Shown piece after piece: positions 1,677-44,844 of a DNA stretch of 64,000 nucleotides. The number at the start of each line of letters is the position of its first letter. The first letter of the stretch is position 1. The stretch covers positions 32,001-96,000 of the forward strand of contig CAWHCQ010000035.1 in assembly GCA_963827755.1 (NCBI GenBank). Reading direction: 5' to 3'. Source of the stretch: an uncultured Gammaproteobacteria bacterium (GTDB lineage: Bacteria; Pseudomonadota; Gammaproteobacteria; UBA9214). The position numbers were made by a program, and so were the translations under genes. Under the pieces are notes generated by a model that was not told the origin of the DNA, made no database searches, and was given only the letters and a program-made list of their open reading frames with translations.

Positions 1677-2537
1677 CTATTTTTCAACAAAACGGTCCCG
1701 CGTCTGCTTGGCGTTTGCAAAACACTCCAGCAGGCGATCACCGTCCTGCGTCCGCACGGCTCGCCGCACACTTTCCAGTTCGCTGATGAAATGCCCGATG
1801 AGCGATTCAATGGCGTCATGATTCGCCAGGCAGATATCACGCCACATTACCGGGTCACTCGATGCAATCCGGGTGAAATCGCGAAAACCGCCTGCCGCAT
1901 ATTCGAACAACTCCGTCTGGTCCGTCATGCGCACGAGGCTGTCCACCAGGGTGAAGGCAAGGACATGCGGCAGGTGACTGGTCGCGGCAAGCACCGCGTC
2001 ATGGTGTTGCGGGTCCATTTCCACGACCTCTGCACCGGCCGCTTCCCACATGGCGCGAACCCGGCCTGTTGCATGCGCATCGGTAACTGCCACGGGCGTG
2101 AGGATAACGCGTCGGTCCCTGTACAGGCCGGCAAGCGAGGCCTCTACCCCGCTTTGTTCAGTGCCGGCAATCGGGTGGCCCGGCACAAAGAAACCCGGCA
2201 CTTCACCGAACACCTGCTTTGCATTATCAAGCACGCTGCCCTTGGCACTGCCGGCATCGGTGAGCACCGCATTTTCGGCCAGCCGCCCCTTGATAGCCCT
2301 GAATACCTGCTGCATGGCGCCGAGCGGTACGGCAACAAGCACCATGTCCGCGCCGCTTACCGCCCTGGCAAGGTCGGTTTCATAGCTGTCGATCACGCCA
2401 AGTTCAAGCGCCTTCTGCAGATGCGCTGCACTGCGGCCCGCGCCGGTGATGTGTTGGCAGTAGCCCGCCTCGCGAAGCGCACGCGCCAGCGAGCCGCCAA
2501 TCAGGCCGACGCCAATTATGCACAAGCGCTCAATCAT
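1677..2537 (-). CDS. tyrA: prephenate/arogenate dehydrogenase
   Basis: GVGLIGGS Rossmann motif, HPIAGTE, HD..LAATSHLPH, GGFRDFTRIA. Confidence 0.93.
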   Translation of the reverse strand: MIERLCIIGVGLIGGSLARALREAGYCQHITGAGRSAAHLQKALELGVIDSYETDLARAVSGADMVLVAVPLGAMQQVFRAIKGRLAENAVLTDAGSAKGSVLDNAKQVFGEVPGFFVPGHPIAGTEQSGVEASLAGLYRDRRVILTPVAVTDAHATGRVRAMWEAAGAEVVEMDPQHHDAVLAATSHLPHVLAFTLVDSLVRMTDQTELFEYAAGGFRDFTRIASSDPVMWRDICLANHDAIESLIGHFISELESVRRAVRTQDGDRLLECFANAKQTRDRFVEK

Positions 2538-15754: not shown

Positions 15755-15790
15755 ACCAACGTATACACAACAGTGCTATCATCGACAGCC

Positions 15791-17071
15791 ATGTCAACTG
15801 AAGCAGTTACTGCTTATATCCCGCTGCTGTTACTCGCCGCTGCCACCGGTGCACTCATTACCTACATATATTTCAACCCACGCCTGAACCGGGTGCGCGA
15901 CAGGTGCACACAACTGGCCACGGCGCTGGAATTCGAGCACAAGGCCGCCGCCGACCGGCAGGCCGTATACCGGCAGCTTGATCAGCAGTTCAAGGACACC
16001 TTCAACGCCATGGCGGCGGATGCGCTCAGGAACAACAATACCCAGTTCCTGCGCCTGGCGAAGGAAAATCTTGAAAAGCTGCAAATAAAATCCGCCGGCG
16101 AACTGGAAAAACGCGAAAAGGCCGTCGAGAATCTTGTCAGGCCGATACGCGATGCCCTGGAAAAAACGGAGTCGCAGGTGCGCAGGATGGAGGCCGATCG
16201 CCAGCTGGCACATGGCGCATTGACCAAACACCTGGAAACCATCGCCGAATCGCATCGTACCCTGCAAGGCGAAACACGTAACCTGGTGCAGGCGCTCAGG
16301 CGTCCGGAAGTTCGCGGACAATGGGGAGAACTGACCCTGAAGCGCCTCGCGGAACTCGCCGGCATGGTCGAGCATTGCGACTTTTTCGAGCAGGAATCCG
16401 TTGCCTGTGACCAGGGAATGCAGCGACCGGACATGGTCGTGCGCATGCCGGGCAAGCGGGATATTATCGTCGACGCCAAGACCCCGCTGGATTCCTACCT
16501 GTCGGCCATTGAAGCCGGCAATGAGGCAGACCGGGTCAAACACCTTGAAAACCACGCGCGCAATGTACGCGCCCGCGTCAGGGAATTATCCAACAAGCGC
16601 TACTGGCAACAGTTCAGCGACAGCCCGGATTTTGTCGTGCTGTTCATCCCCGGCGACCAGTTCCTCGGCGCCGCCCTTGATACTGATCGCACACTGATCG
16701 AGGACGCCCTCTCGGGGCATGTCATTCTCGCCACGCCGACCAGCCTTGTCGCCCTGTTGCGCGCCGTTGCCTATGGCTGGCGCCAGGAGACGCTGGCCGA
16801 GAATGCCGAGGCCATCCGCGAGGTGGGCCAGGAAATGTTTGCCCGCCTGACAAAATTCGCCTCGCACCTCACGAAACTGGGACGCAGCCTGGACAACAGC
16901 GTCGAGGCCTACAACAGGGCTGTCGGTTCCTACGACACGCGCATCCTGCCGGGGGCGCGGAAATTCACGGAAATGGGCGTGACTGCAAAGGAAGCCCCCG
17001 CGGGACCGGATCAAATAGAACGCGCAACCCGCAACATCGAGTCCTGCGAGGAAACCGGTAACAGGCACTAG
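15791..17071 (+). CDS. rmuC: DNA recombination protein RmuC
   Basis: N-terminal TM and coiled coil, RGQWGE, RPDMVV, VDAKTPL, PDFVVLFIP, ATPTSLVALL. Confidence 0.92.
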   Translation: MSTEAVTAYIPLLLLAAATGALITYIYFNPRLNRVRDRCTQLATALEFEHKAAADRQAVYRQLDQQFKDTFNAMAADALRNNNTQFLRLAKENLEKLQIKSAGELEKREKAVENLVRPIRDALEKTESQVRRMEADRQLAHGALTKHLETIAESHRTLQGETRNLVQALRRPEVRGQWGELTLKRLAELAGMVEHCDFFEQESVACDQGMQRPDMVVRMPGKRDIIVDAKTPLDSYLSAIEAGNEADRVKHLENHARNVRARVRELSNKRYWQQFSDSPDFVVLFIPGDQFLGAALDTDRTLIEDALSGHVILATPTSLVALLRAVAYGWRQETLAENAEAIREVGQEMFARLTKFASHLTKLGRSLDNSVEAYNRAVGSYDTRILPGARKFTEMGVTAKEAPAGPDQIERATRNIESCEETGNRH

Positions 17072-17116
17072 CGGCCACCCGCCATCCCCTTTTTTTCAGC
17101 GTATCCTGACCAAAAT

Positions 17117-17135
17117 AATGTAAATTTGTTACATT
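17117..17135. promoter_or_regulatory. palindromic operator-like site AATGTAA-N5-TTACATT
   Basis: Perfect 7-bp inverted repeat just upstream of the GGA-rich candidate sRNA. The half-sites resemble the GacA box, but the spacing is shorter. Confidence 0.4.
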
Positions 17136-17164
17136 TTCCGTGTGTACTCATAGACAGTTTTTTC

Positions 17165-17353
17165 ACTCTGCCCGGCAGGACAATATTAGTTCCAGGGAGG
17201 TAGATTGCGGCAGGGAAGCCACCCCCGGTTTCCCTGTCGGCAAGGATGTAACAGTCTTCCTGGTTTCCTTGTCGTTACACGGACCGTAACGTTACTTTCT
17301 CAGGGACGCGATGTTTGTACCCCCTTTCTGCCCACTCCGGTGGGCATTTTTTT
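17165..17353 (+). ncRNA. candidate CsrB/RsmY/RsmZ-type CsrA-sequestering sRNA
   Basis: Six A(N)GGA motifs, two of them in hairpin loops (GGC-AGGGAA-GCC, GTTAC-ACGGACC-GTAAC), followed by an intrinsic terminator. The 5' end is estimated. Confidence 0.55.
17329..17353 (+). terminator. Rho-independent terminator
   Basis: TGCCCAC-TCCG-GTGGGCA followed by T7. Confidence 0.85.
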
Positions 17354-17428
17354 GTCTCATCCCGCAGCTGCCTGCACACATCGCGCTGTTCCACCCGATC
17401 TCTCCTGCCGGTATAATCTGCACCAGCG

Positions 17429-18190
17429 ATGAGCACAGCAACAACAATTCCCCCGGGCTGGACCGCCACCCCCGGCTTGTTAAAAGACCGGGCAATACTG
17501 GTTACCGGTGCCGCCAACGGCATTGGCCGTGCACTGGGTACAGCCCTTGCCGCACACGGTGCAGCGACCATTCTGCTGGACAAGGATGTCCATGGCCTCG
17601 AACAGGCCTACGATGAAATAGTTGCCGCCGGCCACCCGGAACCCGCCCTTTACCCGCTTGATCTCAAGGGTGCCTTGCCCGGCGACTACGCCGATCTCGC
17701 CGCAATCCTGGAAAGAGAATACCAGGGCCTGGATGGACTGGTTCACAATGCCGCCCAGCTGGGTGCACTGGTACCGCTTGCCAATTTTGATGACGAGATG
17801 TGGTTCGAGACACTGCAGGTCAACCTCAATGCCCCCTACCTGCTGACCCTGGCCTGCCTCGAGCTGATGAACAGGCGCGCAGATGCATCAATCATATTCA
17901 GCTCCGATGCCAGCGGACGCCACGGCAAGGCCTACTGGGGTGCCTACGGGGTCTCCAAGGCGGGGCTCGAGGGACTCATGCAGATACTCGCCGATGAGCT
18001 GGAAACCAATTCCCCGGTGCGTGTCAACAGCATCGATCCGGGACCGGTGCGCACGGCAATGAGAAGCCTGGCCTACCCGGGAGAGGATGCGGCTGCGCTG
18101 AATGCACCGAAAGATGTTGTTGACCCGTTTCTCTACCTGCTGGGGCCTGATAGCCGGGGAATCAGCGGGCGGCAATATACGGTTACATAA
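17429..18190 (+). CDS. yciK: YciK-family short-chain dehydrogenase
   Basis: TGAANGIG, HNAA, YWGAYGVSK, NSIDPGPVRTAMR. TATAAT at 17412-17417. Confidence 0.87.
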   Translation: MSTATTIPPGWTATPGLLKDRAILVTGAANGIGRALGTALAAHGAATILLDKDVHGLEQAYDEIVAAGHPEPALYPLDLKGALPGDYADLAAILEREYQGLDGLVHNAAQLGALVPLANFDDEMWFETLQVNLNAPYLLTLACLELMNRRADASIIFSSDASGRHGKAYWGAYGVSKAGLEGLMQILADELETNSPVRVNSIDPGPVRTAMRSLAYPGEDAAALNAPKDVVDPFLYLLGPDSRGISGRQYTVT

Positions 18191-18220
18191 ATATACCCTC
18201 TGGTGCTTTCTCCTCCTTCT

Positions 18221-18830
18221 GTTGATGCGCCTTGCAGGCGGGTTTTATTTGGATGCGGGCTCTCGCGCCCGCCGGCGAGGTACTTTTCTTTGCTCCGCCA
18301 AAGAAAACGTATCCAAAAGAAAGGCGACCCGGAGGTGCAGCCCGAATACTCATTTTCAATGAGTATTCGGGTTCCCTGCGCTTCTCGCGAAAACCGGCGC
18401 ATGCGCAACTCGCAATCTCGCTGCGCTCGAAAGCTCAAACAGGGCGCATGCTTCATCCGGTTTTCACTGCGATGCTCGGCTGCGCCTACGGGAGGGGTAG
18501 ATCAACCCCCATACTCGGCGAGTATGGGGGTTTGATCTACCCCTCCCGTAGCACTCACCGAGTACCGCAGCCAATCCGGGGAATAGCCGCGCACCCTGTC
18601 TGAGCTTTCGAGCGCAGCGAGATTGCGAGTTGTGCGCGGCCCCCGGATTGGCGAGGAACGCAGGGGACCGGATTAGGCAAGACAGCGTTGCTGTCTTGCC
18701 TAATACGGTGAGTGCTCCGGGTGCCCTTCTCTTTGGGTACTTTCTCTTGGGCAAGCAAGAGAAAGTACCTCGCCGCGCGGGCGCGAAAGCCCGCATCCAA
18801 ATAAAACCAGCGCCTGCAAGGCGCCCCAAC
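18221..18830. repeat. 610-bp imperfect palindrome made of two inverted, diverged copies of a structured element of about 300 bp
   Basis: Centre at 18518. The arms share GCGCCTTGCAGGCG..GGTTTTATTTGGATGCGGGC, an identical 31-mer and near-identical inner ends. Internal helices covary between copies. Confidence 0.9.
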
Positions 18831-18869
18831 AAAATAGCTACATTTGCAAAATCAAAGAACCGAAATCAG

Positions 18870-19996
18870 CTACTCCATAAGATTGACATGGATCCCCTGC
18901 GCCTCGAGCGCATCTGCACGCGCCGCGATGAAACGCTGGAAACTCGGCTGTTCGCGGTAGGCGGCGGAGGCCACATAATCCATGGCGGACTGCACGTGAA
19001 AGGCCTTCAGGTAGCCCTCTGTTCTGAATACTTCCCTGCCCTGCGCGTCGAAAAAAACCGCCGACGGGGCATACTGGATATTCAACTGCTTCGCCCATTG
19101 CTGCGCACTCGTTGTCCTGCCATCCATGCCTGTCAGCGGGTCCTGTGACCACATATCCAGCAACAGCACATCAAAACGCGCCAGTTGTTCACGACTCTCC
19201 GGACGCTTCAGGATATCGAGGTGCAATTCGTCGCAGGGGGCACACTCCTTTTGCTCGAACAGCACCAGCAGCGGCTTGCCACTCGCAAGCGCCTGCAGGG
19301 AGGTGCCCGGCGGCAGGTGCGCGGGATCCCGGTGCAGCACACCGCTGGCGGGCTGCGGTGCCTTTGCCGCAAGGTATTCGCGAAAGTCAGGATCATGCCC
19401 GTTATACAGGGCCGCATACTCCAGTGCCGCATCGAACCTGTGGGGCGGGTAATATCCATTCGCACGCAACACCACATTACCCTGTTCTTCAAGAAACAGC
19501 AGTGTCGGAGTGAACATGACCCGCAGCGACGCTGCAAATTTTTTCTCGGTCGTCAACTCGCCATCAAATCCGGTCACTTCACGATCGCCCCAGATATTGA
19601 TCGCCACGACCTCGAAATGCTCGCGGGTCATGGTCTCGGTCGCCTTTAGAGAGAAGTTCGTGTCCAGCAGCTTCTTGCAATAGGGACAACCGTCCTGGTA
19701 GAAATACAGCAGCACGCGTTTCCCGGCCGTGGCAGCCTCTGCAACATCTTCGCGTATATCCAGGAATGAATTGGCAAACCAGTCGGGTTTCTCGGCATAA
19801 CCCGGGTTTACCATCCCCTCGGCCAGTACCTCCGCAGAGAGATCTGCCGTTGCAGTCGATCATCCCGGGCTGTTGACGCTGCACATGCTCCGGCCACGGC
19901 AGACGGGCCGGCGTCGGGCTGCGAATCACAGGCGGCAATCAATACCAGCTGCAGCAGCAGGAATACAAGCGGCGCGGGTCTTCCGGTGATAAACAT
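18870..19996 (-). CDS. SoxW-like tandem thioredoxin-fold protein with lipoprotein-type signal (frameshift near 19830-19900)
   Basis: WF..SFLDIRED, CPYC, FTPT, and a second domain with CAPC. The upstream part (19808-19996) has a hydrophobic LIAAC lipobox in another frame. Confidence 0.78.
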
Positions 19997-20037
19997 GAAG
20001 AACACCTCTTCAGGTCGGCAGGCTGATAGCGGTAAGC

Positions 20038-41246: not shown

Positions 41247-42539
41247 ATGACACTTTACCTGGGCATCGATATCGGCACCTCGGCCTGCCGCAGCTGTGTC
41301 ATCGACGCGGATGCCCGTCATACAGGCGGAGGCCCGCACCCCGCTGCCTGCCCCGGTGCGCAGCGGTGCCGGCGTCGAGCAGGACCCGGAGTGCTGGTGG
41401 CAGGCGCTGACCGACAACCTCGATGAACTGGCCGGCCGGGTCCCGCTGGCAGCCGTTTCGGCCATCACCCTCGACGCCACCTCCTCGACCCTGCTCTGCA
41501 GCGACGGCGCGGGCAGGCCGTTGACCCCGGGCTTGATGTACAACGACGCCCGCGCCGGTCGCCAGGCCGGGCAGCTCGCCCGTATCGTGCCCGATGGCAG
41601 CGCCGCCCATGGCGCCAGTGCCAGCCTGGCAAAACTGCTCTGGCTGCTGCAGTCCCCGGCCGGCAAGCAGGCCCGCTACGCCCTGCACCAGGCCGACTGG
41701 CTGATCGGCCGCCTCTGTGGCCGCTTCGGAATCAGCGATGAAAACAATGCCCTGAAACTCGGCTATGACATTATCCAGCGCCGCTGGCCGGACTGGCTCG
41801 CCGCGGCTGGACATCCCGCCATCACTGTTTCCGCAGGTGGTGCCGGCAGGCCAGGTCATCGGCCGGCTGAGTGACGAATACTGCCGGCGCTGGGGGTTTT
41901 CGACAGGCACACGCGTGACCAGCGGTACGACCGACAGCACCGCAAGCTTCGTGGCGACACAGGCCGGGGCGGGTGAAGCCGTCACCTCGCTGGGCAGCAC
42001 GCTGGTGTTGAAAGTGCTGTCGCGCTGAACCGCTGTTTGCACCTGAAAACGGCATCTACAGTCATCGCCTTGGCAATCTCTGGCTGGCCGGTGGCGCCTC
42101 CAACAGTGGTGGCGCTGTGTTGCTGCACTATTTCAGCCTGGCCGAAATCAGCCGCATGACGGCATTGTTGAAACCGGACCAGCCAACCGGGCTGGATTAC
42201 TACCCCCTGCTGTCTGCGGGTGAGCGCTTTCCGGTGAACGACCCGCAACTGGCCCCGCGCCTCGAACCCCGCCCGAAGGACGACGCCGTTTTCTTCCAGG
42301 GCATGCTCGAAGGGATCGCGGCCATTGAAAAAACCGGCTACCGGCGACTGGCGGAACTGGGCGCGCCCTGGCCCGAAAAAGTCATCACCACCGGGGGCGG
42401 CGCCGCGAACCACGCCTGGCAAACCATCCGCTCGCGCTGCCTGGGCATCCCGGTCGTCGCCGCCGAACACCAGCAGGCCGCCTATGGCGCGGCATTACTG
42501 GCCCGCAGGAGCGCTCGACCTGATCAATCAACCCTGTAG
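41247..42539 (+). CDS. FGGY-family carbohydrate kinase (several frameshifts)
   Basis: MTLYLGIDIGTS, EQDP, MYND.R, HQADW, SDENNALKLGYD, GTTDS.ASF, SLGSTL, GGASNSGG, GERFP and GGGA are spread over several frames. Confidence 0.82.
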
Positions 42540-43668: not shown

Positions 43669-44844
43669 TCAAGCAGGACTCAGGCTGTTTAAATACTCAC
43701 CGAGGCGGCGCACACCTTCGCGCAGATTCTCCAGCGAGGTGGTATAGGCAAAACGCACATGCTTCTCCGGCTGGTTGCTGCCGAAATCCACACCGGGCGT
43801 AATCGCCACACCGGCCTCTTCCAGCAGCTGTTTTGAAAAGGCATAACTGTCGTCGCTGAAGCGGCTGCAATCGGCATACAGATAAAATGCCCCGTCCGGG
43901 GTGACCGGGATATCAAAACCGAGTTCACGCAAGGCCGGCAACAAAAAATCGCGCCGTTCACGAAACGCCTGCCGGCGTGTTTCCAGGATCGCGATGCTCT
44001 CATCACTAAAAGCCGCCAGGGCCGCATGCTGGGCCATGGTCGGCGCGGCAAGAAACAGGTTCTGCGCCAGTTTGTCGATGCCCTGCACGCAGTCCTGCGG
44101 CACCACCATCCAGCCAAGCCGCCAGCCGGTCATGCCGAAATATTTTGAAAAACTGTTAATCACGATCAGGTCGTCGGAAACGGCAAGCGCCGTCTCGTGC
44201 CGCAACACCATAGGTCAGCCCGTGATAGATCTCATCCACGATCAGGCTGCCACCCTGCGACCGGGTGTAGTCATACAACTGCCTGAATGGTTTCCTGCGG
44301 CAACAGTGTCCCGGTCGGGTTCGACGGTGATGCCAGCAACAGGGCCGCAACATCGCGGTGACCAGTACTGCTCGACCTGTTCAACCGTGGGCTGATAACC
44401 GCTGCCCGCATCCACGGGTATACCGACCGGCTCTGCGTTTAACAGGTGCACATAATTACGGTTACAGGGATAACCCGGGTCCGCCATCAACACCTTGTCG
44501 CCGCTATTGACGAGCATGCGCAAGCGCAAGCTGCAGGCCGAGCGATGCACCCGGGGTAACGACAATCCGCCCGGGAGAAACCTTGACGCCATAGCGATCG
44601 GAATAGAATGCCGCAATCCGCTCACGTAATGCCGGCAGGCCGGTAGCCGGCGTGTAATGGGTATAGCCTGCTGACAGGGCCTTGATACCGGCATCGATGA
44701 CCGGTTGCGGCGTTACAAAATCCGGCTCGCCGATTTCCATGTGAATAATCGATACGACCGGCCGCCTCCAGCTCCCGGGCACGGGCAAGCAATGCCATGA
44801 CATGGAATGGCTGAATGGCCTCCATGCGGTCTGGCAATTTTCAC
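43669..44844 (-). CDS. PLP-dependent class I/II aminotransferase (several frameshifts)
   Basis: IQPFHVMALLARA, HMEIGEPDF, YTPATGLPALR, DPGYPCNR, VDEIYHGL, NSFSKYFGMTGWRLGW. Likely GTG start overlapping the upstream gene's stop. Confidence 0.82.

Follow-up and report, generated by a model that had tools for sequence, protein, structure and literature searches.

A palindrome of about 610 bp fills the gap between two convergent genes in a 64,000-nt stretch of DNA from an uncultured gammaproteobacterium of the lineage UBA9214 (contig CAWHCQ010000035.1, positions 32,001 to 96,000; this whole stretch is called the window). It consists of two inverted, diverged copies of a non-coding repeat of about 300 nt, which lie tail to tail. 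The locus is laid out as follows, in window coordinates:

17429..18190, + strand: YciK-like short-chain dehydrogenase (SDR) gene, which stops 31 nt short of the element
18221..18517 (also given as 18210-18518), + strand: left copy, sense strand +, delimited from the sequence, a repeat finder, and an alignment of the two halves
18519..18830 (also given as 18518-18840), - strand: right copy, sense strand -, delimited by the repeat finder and the alignment of the halves; matched at 18545-18769 (-) by the covariance model R1 (see below) with 158.6 bits and an E-value of 2.5e-40
18487..18550, no strand: 3' tails of both copies, which abut within 1 nt and jointly form a near-perfect central hairpin of about 30 bp
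18870..19814, - strand: convergent gene for a protein with a thioredoxin-like domain, whose end lies about 40 nt from the element

An earlier note on this DNA had named the flanking genes yciK and soxW. The first name is close to the mark, as the SDR scores 266 bits against an NCBIfam cut-off of 269 for YciK-like proteins; the second is unconfirmed, the convergent gene having only its thioredoxin-like domain and no NCBIfam match. Coding capacity was not found in the element, since none of the 16 open reading frames (ORFs) over the window copies or related copies matches Pfam (E up to 0.01). On the sense strand, the parts of one copy follow each other from 5' to 3' in the order H0, 5' module, P1, P2, J, P3/P4, apical loop, T-rich bulge, J', and 3' tail. 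In the left copy, they are placed as follows:

18228..18250, + strand: terminator-like small hairpin with a T-rich run at the outer end of the copy, by consensus match only; mirror site at 18825-18799 (-)
18255..18272, + strand: H0, a GC hairpin ahead of the 5' module, identical in sequence in both copies
18279..18326, + strand: 5' module, with a hairpin (18279-18314; T-rich 5' arm, A-rich 3' arm), an A-rich strand (18315-18322), and GGCG (18323-26)
18334..18486, + strand: core, in which all pairs were checked and none is non-standard
18334-42/18478-86: closing helix P1 (18551-60/18706-15 in the right copy)
18343-69, + strand: side hairpin P2
18370-88, + strand: J, a conserved unpaired stretch
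18389-97/18457-65, + strand: helix P3
18399-406/18444-51, + strand: helix P4
18407..18443, + strand: apical loop, carrying the family loop motif with an internal partial duplication; same sequence at 18595-18631 (-)
18452-56, + strand: T-rich bulge on the 3' side beneath P4
18466-77, + strand: J', a near-repeat of J

The two halves share 86% column identity over the 325 columns of a MAFFT alignment, and each of them folds far better than expected from its composition (left half, -130.6 kcal/mol, z -5.4; right half, -163.1 kcal/mol, z -6.9; 0 of 100 shuffles as good in either case). All helices that the earlier note had named were recovered, namely P1, the side hairpins (18341-71 and 18667-709), and the inner helices, including 18570-81/18641-52. 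Its observation that the stems differ while the pairing is kept also stands: in a structure-based comparison of the two copies (covariance-model alignment), 28 of the 52 modelled pairs are identical, 23 have changed on both sides with pairing kept, none has changed on one side only, and one is unpaired in one copy. Identity between the copies is accordingly unevenly spread, with 86 of 106 unpaired columns (81%) but only 57 of 104 paired columns (55%) being identical. Each strand of the 64 kb contains exactly one occurrence of the 31-mer of the apical loop, reported as identical in both copies, and likewise one of each of the near-identical terminal motifs, outer and inner (0.00 occurrences expected for the 31-mer, 0.00-0.01 for the terminal motifs). 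One correction applies, in that the lowest-energy fold of the entire 631 nt as a single strand pairs copy with copy (-276 kcal/mol, DNA parameters), so that the covarying helices form only if each copy folds alone.

The repeat belongs to a family that extends far beyond the window. In a blastn search of plasmid and chromid records, only about 70 nt near the 5' end matched, in unannotated intergenic DNA of Burkholderia, Ralstonia, Pasteurella, Aeromonas, Pseudoalteromonas, and Chitinibacter; the loci of these matches hold whole elements of the same build, which again form inverted pairs in Pasteurella and Ralstonia. Matches in Sinorhizobium were discarded as chance because they fall in an ORF-like stretch without the element.

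The apical loop offers a second route to the family. It measures 37 nt in the window and is shorter in Ralstonia, whose copies are without the internal partial duplication. A degenerate pattern covering both forms returned at least 123 stretches in many phyla when a genome collection was scanned, as compared to about 35 chance matches that we estimate for the whole collection under uniform base composition. The matches listed span Pseudomonadota, Desulfobacterota, Nitrospirota, Bacillota, and Bacteroidota, together with one Gastranaerophilales genome and one Vogelbacteria genome. Part of the loop's conservation follows from the search pattern itself, but the complementarity of the stems does not, and in nearly all matches the flanking stems are complementary within a match and unrelated between matches. 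At least seven of the eight pairs beside the loop are Watson-Crick pairs in 104 of the 125 distinct loop matches listed, compared with 1.3% when the partners are swapped. A gap-free alignment of the same 125 matches, which was fitted to no structure, has 68.6% of its cells paired (43.4 ± 1.2 when shuffled) and 434 double-change cells (204 ± 13); slid registers reach 40-59%, the -1 register being a second true register. Median duplex energies of -38.1 kcal/mol for own and -16.5 kcal/mol for swapped arms were set aside in favor of the Watson-Crick count, because related copies contaminate the swapped control.

Many of the members in Clostridia consist simply of a long hairpin, whose arms measure 90-150 bp. 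Hungatella hathewayi has two almost identical hairpins 1.5 kb apart (loci L106 and L107), each with the family loop and arms of about 110 bp, which suggests a recent duplication in a Firmicute. In a gammaproteobacterial genome (L008/L009), two consecutive genes of one strand are each followed by an AT-rich hairpin that carries the family loop, giving the order gene, hairpin, gene, hairpin.

The fold below the loop was traced with a covariance model, R1, which was built from the left copy alone (18279-18492). It yielded 61 matches at E-values up to 0.1 in 368 kb (the window and 99 loci), of which only the two copies lie within the window. Full-length matches come from genomes of Beta-, Gamma-, and Deltaproteobacteria type and from Nitrospirales; they include Ralstonia, Variovorax-like bacteria, Oxalobacteraceae, Methylophilaceae, Arenicellales, and Methylophaga, and also Desulfobulbales, Desulfuromonadales, Pasteurella, and Aeromonas. 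In the alignment of the 61 matches, which is fitted to the structure and whose cell counts are not independent events because related Ralstonia copies make up roughly a third of the rows, 93.3% of the 2107 pair cells are paired (60.3 ± 0.7 when shuffled; 42-48% in slid controls). All 52 pairs show two-sided changes, with 683 double-change cells as opposed to 190 ± 12. It is the pairing and not the sequence that is kept, both between the window copies and in the larger alignments of 61 and 125 matches, which bears out the earlier proposal that a single-stranded fold is conserved. The great breadth of the family, its conserved 5' hairpin/pseudoknot module, and the lack of an excess of G.U pairs go beyond what that note had noticed.

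The 5' module was found with a crude pattern in 57 of the 137 loop matches listed, including Bacteroidota and some Bacillota. Its GGCG (18323-26) is complementary to the loop of the preceding hairpin, which defines a candidate pseudoknot of 4-6 nt across the family. This candidate is paired in 74.7% of cells (60.9 ± 1.9 when shuffled), with 17 double changes as against 5.5; because R1 cannot fit a pseudoknot, this is a fairer test than that of the fitted helices, and it lends moderate support to a conserved pseudoknot. The A-rich strand that follows the hairpin mirrors the purine arm of the hairpin in both window copies and in Pasteurella, and the tracts are nearly mirror-symmetric. A triple helix may form at this site, but a direct-repeat or an alternative-helix account fits equally well, and its geometry is doubtful, as 9-11 nt would have to run along a stem of 13-14 bp. 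The composition of the A-rich strand tracks that of the 3' arm of the hairpin (window 18279-18326 and 18722-18769; L001, L020, and L082); in one L020 copy, the 3' arm is pyrimidine-rich and so is the next strand, which would fit either a triple-strand code or an alternative helix. In some lineages, the hairpin H0 ahead of the module has an adjoining T-run. A motif of 10-12 nt (TGCG.T.CTC-like) occurs three times in the left copy, in J (18370-18388), the apical loop (18407-18443), and J' (18466-18477), always unpaired and on the sense strand, and looks like a set of putative repeated binding sites.

Complementary arms do not in themselves require selection on the fold. Quasi-palindromes could be kept complementary by template switching or hairpin-templated repair, with the compensatory changes as a mere by-product, and the 23 two-sided as opposed to 0 one-sided changes between the window copies, the near absence of G.U pairs, and the arms of 90-150 bp in some Clostridia members are all in line with such a process. 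However, features such as the asymmetry of the loop, the bulge on one side only, the side hairpins, and the lack of complementarity between J and J' should also be lost through template switching, yet they persist across phyla. Moreover, the hairpin of the 5' module (helix 1) and the side hairpin P2 covary independently of the main palindrome, which makes a neutral origin of the pattern improbable.

Evidence of mobility comes from Ralstonia. A Ralstonia copy used as query matched 815 places in 150 plasmid and chromid records, 134 of them from Ralstonia; among the Ralstonia megaplasmids listed, there are 2-8 places per replicon and 14-17 in two others. The 4-kb stretch around one Ralstonia doublet matches other megaplasmids over the doublet only (81-85%). 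At the junction between the cobaltochelatase gene and cbiE, some strains carry a doublet of about 610 nt, whereas others have 20-50 nt of plain intergenic DNA; the alleles aligned were two empty ones and an intermediate one with an altered left copy. A query spanning this junction was covered to at least 80% in 103 of 135 records, and the 45 rows listed comprise 33 with full coverage, 1 with 87%, 9 with 66%, and 2 that cover the element only. Because the extra DNA is a repeat that is also present elsewhere in the genome, insertion would be the simpler reading of this indel, whose direction is unrooted. The earlier note had left the choice between a structured noncoding RNA or ribozyme and a mobile element; the filled and empty Ralstonia sites and the unrelated contexts speak for a mobile, non-autonomous element, and nothing points to a ribozyme.

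The arrangement of neighboring copies is biased. Pairs of R1 matches are oriented tail to tail in 13 cases, head to head in none, and in tandem in 3, and the tails lie 1-7 nt apart in the window and in L120. In Ralstonia as in the window, the two 5' modules at the outer ends of a doublet form inverted repeats of 60-70 bp. This bias agrees with the former suggestion that the element inserts as inverted doublets, but 20 elements in the 4-kb loci are without a partner, and three Ralstonia doublets in three unrelated contexts have both halves in common but not the spacer of 70-110 nt. Some members are directly flanked by short tandem repeats with units of 7-12 nt (L019, about 1700-1900 (-); L027; L005, 1220-1300; L006, 1115-1170), which are C/A-rich if located 3' of the element and G/T-rich if located 5'. 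The G/T-rich leader and the C/A-rich tail of Ralstonia elements are partly complementary.

Whether the fold is read as DNA or as RNA bears on the main rival explanation, in which the element acts at the RNA level, either as a structured domain in the 3' untranslated region of the upstream gene or as a small RNA of its own, with loops that bind a ubiquitous protein or RNA in stability, processing, or termination, and with mobility being incidental, as has also been proposed for ERIC and REP sequences. The orientation of one set of elements favors such a role. Pseudoknot-bearing elements were included in this set if the gene on their 5' side is annotated or supported by Pfam, and 27 of the 31 that qualify directly follow this gene and share its strand, both window copies among them. 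L071 and the second members of three doublets (L001, L040, and L056) depart from this pattern. A 5' neighbor without a Pfam match led to exclusion (L054, L037, L041, L062, L031, L048, L067, and several second members). By contrast, the nearest 5' ORF of at least 150 aa is co-oriented for 14, opposite for 14, and absent for 5 of 33 low-GC loop matches, and doublets between co-directional genes (L001, L040, and L056) have one antisense copy.

Individual features are similarly divided. The candidate H-type pseudoknot with its A-rich strand, an apical stem of 8-10 bp that is followed by the 3' T-rich bulge in the manner of a terminator, CTTCGG-type loops in several P2 hairpins, and one fixed T.G pair in the Bacteroidota copies (as we read the aligned loop loci) are RNA-like. 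Likewise, the fold is strand-specific, as the conserved motifs are all unpaired and lie, like the one-sided bulge and the side hairpins, on one strand. Yet the terminator-like hairpin stands before and not after each window copy, and no promoter-like site was found in the region scanned for terminators and promoters, where terminator-like sites number 4 as compared to 1.1 ± 1.0 in shuffles (consensus matching only).

The composition of the pairs also argues against an RNA. The 2107 pair cells of the 61-match alignment comprise 1924 Watson-Crick pairs, 41 G.U (1.9%), 50 A.C (2.4%), and 92 others, with no wobble excess and no strand asymmetry, although a structured RNA is expected to show many more G.U than A.C pairs. 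This count replaces that on minimum-energy folds (G.U, 5.1% sense and 6.8% antisense), which was uninformative. The similar rarity of G.U and A.C pairs, together with the lack of one-sided changes, is in keeping with pairing in DNA, with a requirement that both strands fold, or with correction templated by the hairpin. With respect to the replication strand, six copies in complete genomes, whose origins are unverified, are split 3 to 3. Motifs of single-stranded DNA and of RNA are hard to separate by sequence alone, as noted in PMC5737381. On balance, the recognized strand would more likely be DNA than RNA, and an RNA-level function, which is not exclusive of a foldback element, is a less probable account. 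A self-cleaving ribozyme or other catalytic RNA would find support only in the general complexity of the fold, with its multi-stem junction, candidate pseudoknot, and conserved unpaired nucleotides; since the pair composition is DNA-like, gene orientation is random in the low-GC set, and no ribozyme family of Rfam 15 matches even at E-values up to 1 (17000-20000 and five related loci), it is very unlikely.

No described family was found to which the element belongs. Rfam 15 has no match in the whole window at the gathering threshold, in agreement with the earlier note, which could assign no named family. At E-values up to 1, the only match in 17000-20000 is to mir-577 (18482-18553 (-); 40.8 bits, threshold 100), which is spurious and corresponds to the central hairpin of the abutting tails. 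In 15 related loci, only an unrelated RNase P gene was matched, and five loci searched at E-values up to 1 gave two weak chance matches. Literature searches by keyword and by sequence string retrieved no description of the element, and an older account may exist under another name; likewise, no motif matching the element was found in passages of the main text of PMC5737381, whose supplements may bear on the question.

The closest parallels lie among small foldback elements. REPs are sequences of 20-40 nt with a 5' GTAG that number in the tens to hundreds within a single clade and are mobilized by RAYT (TnpA-REP). Like REPs and REPINs, the element is a non-coding extragenic palindrome that forms inverted doublets, has no gene in cis, and would be recognized as a single-stranded hairpin. 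It differs from them in its branched structure of 200-300 nt, in conserving the loop and not the foot, in its 5' pseudoknot-like module, in having few copies per replicon, and in a loop common across phyla. The unit of about 300 nt occurs in 2 copies in 64 kb and at 2-17 places per Ralstonia replicon, there is no Y1 transposase in the window, and GTAG/CTAC sites within the element are confined to the central tails (18486, 18497, 18537, and 18548). ERIC/IRU elements of enterobacteria and vibrios are also imperfect foldback palindromes that exceed 100 nt, lie in transcribed intergenic regions, lack a known transposase, and vary in size through internal insertions, but they differ in sequence and distribution. 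Whereas E. coli genomes carry ERIC copies, the Aeromonas member of the present family has no blastn match in 5,426 complete E. coli genomes, and ERIC is not known to have a conserved 20-nt loop common to phyla.

Non-autonomous IS200/IS605 elements (PATEs) and their guide-RNA scaffolds would resemble the element in single-strand movement, hairpin recognition, the lack of target duplications and terminal inverted repeats, and an enzyme family that extends across phyla. They are marked by a hairpin near either end and by defined cleavage sites, which were not identified in the present element. No TnpA, TnpB, or IscB gene lies near any copy, and the related Rfam families, HEARO and the IS605-orfB motifs, have no match in the window or the related loci scanned. 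The element also exceeds by far the size of an intrinsic terminator, a short GC-rich hairpin directly followed by a U-run; terminator-like sites stand at the outer ends of both copies and a T-rich bulge follows the apical stem, while the central 30-bp hairpin (18487-18550) has no T-run. With attC sites, it has in common a conserved structure with variable sequence, a strand-specific folded single strand, and a possible position after genes (PMC5737381). In contrast to attC, which conserves its ends (the R'' and R' core sites) and varies in the middle, the element conserves the middle, varies in the stems, and is 2-3 times larger; moreover, the attC core motifs GTTRRRY and RYYYAAC are absent from 18190-18872, and the window holds neither an integrase nor a cassette array. 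The features conserved here, namely a loop and internal loops, a 5' pseudoknot-like module, and a loop that recurs across phyla, would thus set apart a family that has no Rfam entry and that we did not find described.

A further likeness concerns ssoA, ssi, and n'-pas, long imperfect hairpins that are active as one DNA strand, have short conserved unpaired motifs and free stems, and may occur inverted on both strands. The element could accordingly be a signal in single-stranded DNA that is used by the host, such as a loading site for a universal replication protein (primosome, primase, or RNA polymerase), with the pairs serving both strands. Purely Watson-Crick stems, unpaired motifs that are conserved across phyla, and inverted pairs that provide one site per strand would suit such a role. 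A 13-nt core of the loop motif (apical loop core, window 18408-18429) probably also occurs in ColE1-type vectors, downstream of the origin in the region of the single-strand initiation signal, but presumably in a stem there and not in a loop, which detracts from the likeness. ssoA, ssi, and n'-pas belong to plasmid and phage replicons, with one or two in each, whereas the element occupies many polymorphic intergenic sites in chromosomes and megaplasmids and has no phage match. Its low and variable copy number and the polymorphism of its sites within a species complex are odd for a housekeeping signal, and the E. coli genomes have no match to the Aeromonas copy. A host signal of this kind is thus unlikely, even though ColE1-type origins expose a single-stranded primosome assembly signal (PMC3167613, which prints no sequence of it).

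Elsewhere in the window, an RmuC family gene lies one gene upstream of the element (15773-17068 (+); 316.6 bits with Pfam, far under the cut-off with NCBIfam). The RmuC family is tied to limiting inversions at short inverted repeats, and its presence near the element is probably a coincidence. Two ORFs match only the C-terminal part of an FGGY kinase (42012-42536 (+)) and of a class I/II aminotransferase (43672-44214 (-)), and several neighboring ORFs at 41.3-44.7 kb are without a Pfam match; these may be gene remnants.

The reading that we prefer, at slightly less than an even chance, is that the 610 bp are two old and diverged members of a widespread non-autonomous foldback family whose folded sense strand is read by a factor acting in trans. 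Each member is one long imperfect hairpin, in which the conserved parts are unpaired on the sense strand: the apical loop, about 20 nt long, the internal loop with a related motif on either side (J and J'), the T-rich bulge, and the hairpin/pseudoknot module at the 5' end. The stems would drift freely so long as pairing holds. The family would spread, or have spread in the past, as a non-autonomous element, with a factor encoded elsewhere that recognizes the folded sense strand through its unpaired motifs; this strand would more likely be DNA exposed in replication or transfer than RNA. New copies would land near gene ends and next to, or abutting, the tail of a copy that already resides on the opposite strand. 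Tail-to-tail pairs would arise because such a tail, when read on the other strand, is a favored target. Near-perfect palindromes of 300 bp are unstable in bacteria, which may be why the halves of a surviving pair differ. Of this account, the fold and its covariation, the wide distribution of the family, the presence/absence polymorphism, the bias toward tail-to-tail pairs, and the lack of a linked gene are observed, while the single-stranded DNA form, the factor in trans, and the origin of the pairs are inferred.

Several observations weigh against the foldback-element reading. A classic MITE has short terminal inverted repeats flanked by a target-site duplication; neither of these, nor any direct repeat of at least 7 nt at the doublet ends, was found at the window doublet or the filled site in Ralstonia, although the two 5' modules of a doublet do form inverted outer ends of 60-70 bp, and the presence/absence indel at that site has no root. 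As the earlier note had stated, the window holds no cognate enzyme: none of its 55 ORFs matches a transposase, integrase, reverse transcriptase, or HUH family, and the genes are housekeeping genes only. The recurrent neighboring enzyme genes that it had advised looking for were not found either: the 1003 ORFs from the related loci include no protein family that is repeatedly encoded next to the copies, and the only cluster in more than three loci is made up of ORFs over the elements themselves. Phage records (50,697) gave no blastn match with the window copy or the Ralstonia doublet. The stems of copies in one genome are often wholly different, which points to old copies rather than recent bursts. 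To these are added the RNA-like orientation of the pseudoknot-bearing set and the CTTCGG-type loops, the fitted and partly redundant rows of the 61-match alignment, and the rarity of G.U pairs, which could reflect hairpin-templated correction and not a DNA substrate.

Whereas small palindromic repeats of the REP, ERIC, or MITE kind are usually confined to a single clade, the present loop motif, with stems that vary freely yet stay complementary, extends from Clostridia and Bacteroidota to Nitrospirales and Proteobacteria and is not represented in Rfam. It is conceivable, if rather speculative, that these elements form a pan-bacterial class of hairpins that have a common loop of some 20 nt and often a pseudoknot or triple-strand module at the 5' end, and that are served by machinery of their own in trans; this class would be either a new kind of mobile DNA that needs no terminal repeats and no gene linked to it, or a universal signal in RNA or DNA that is read by a core protein. 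If truly undescribed, the family would provide a large, alignable data set on the upkeep of a single-stranded fold over deep time, and it would point to a widespread loop-reading factor that could be identified by pull-down with a 20-nt oligonucleotide. For genome annotation, it matters that such stretches of 200-600 bp draw spurious ORF calls and look like one-off palindromes if seen singly; the element described here is not such a singular palindrome but belongs to a family of structured, probably mobile elements.

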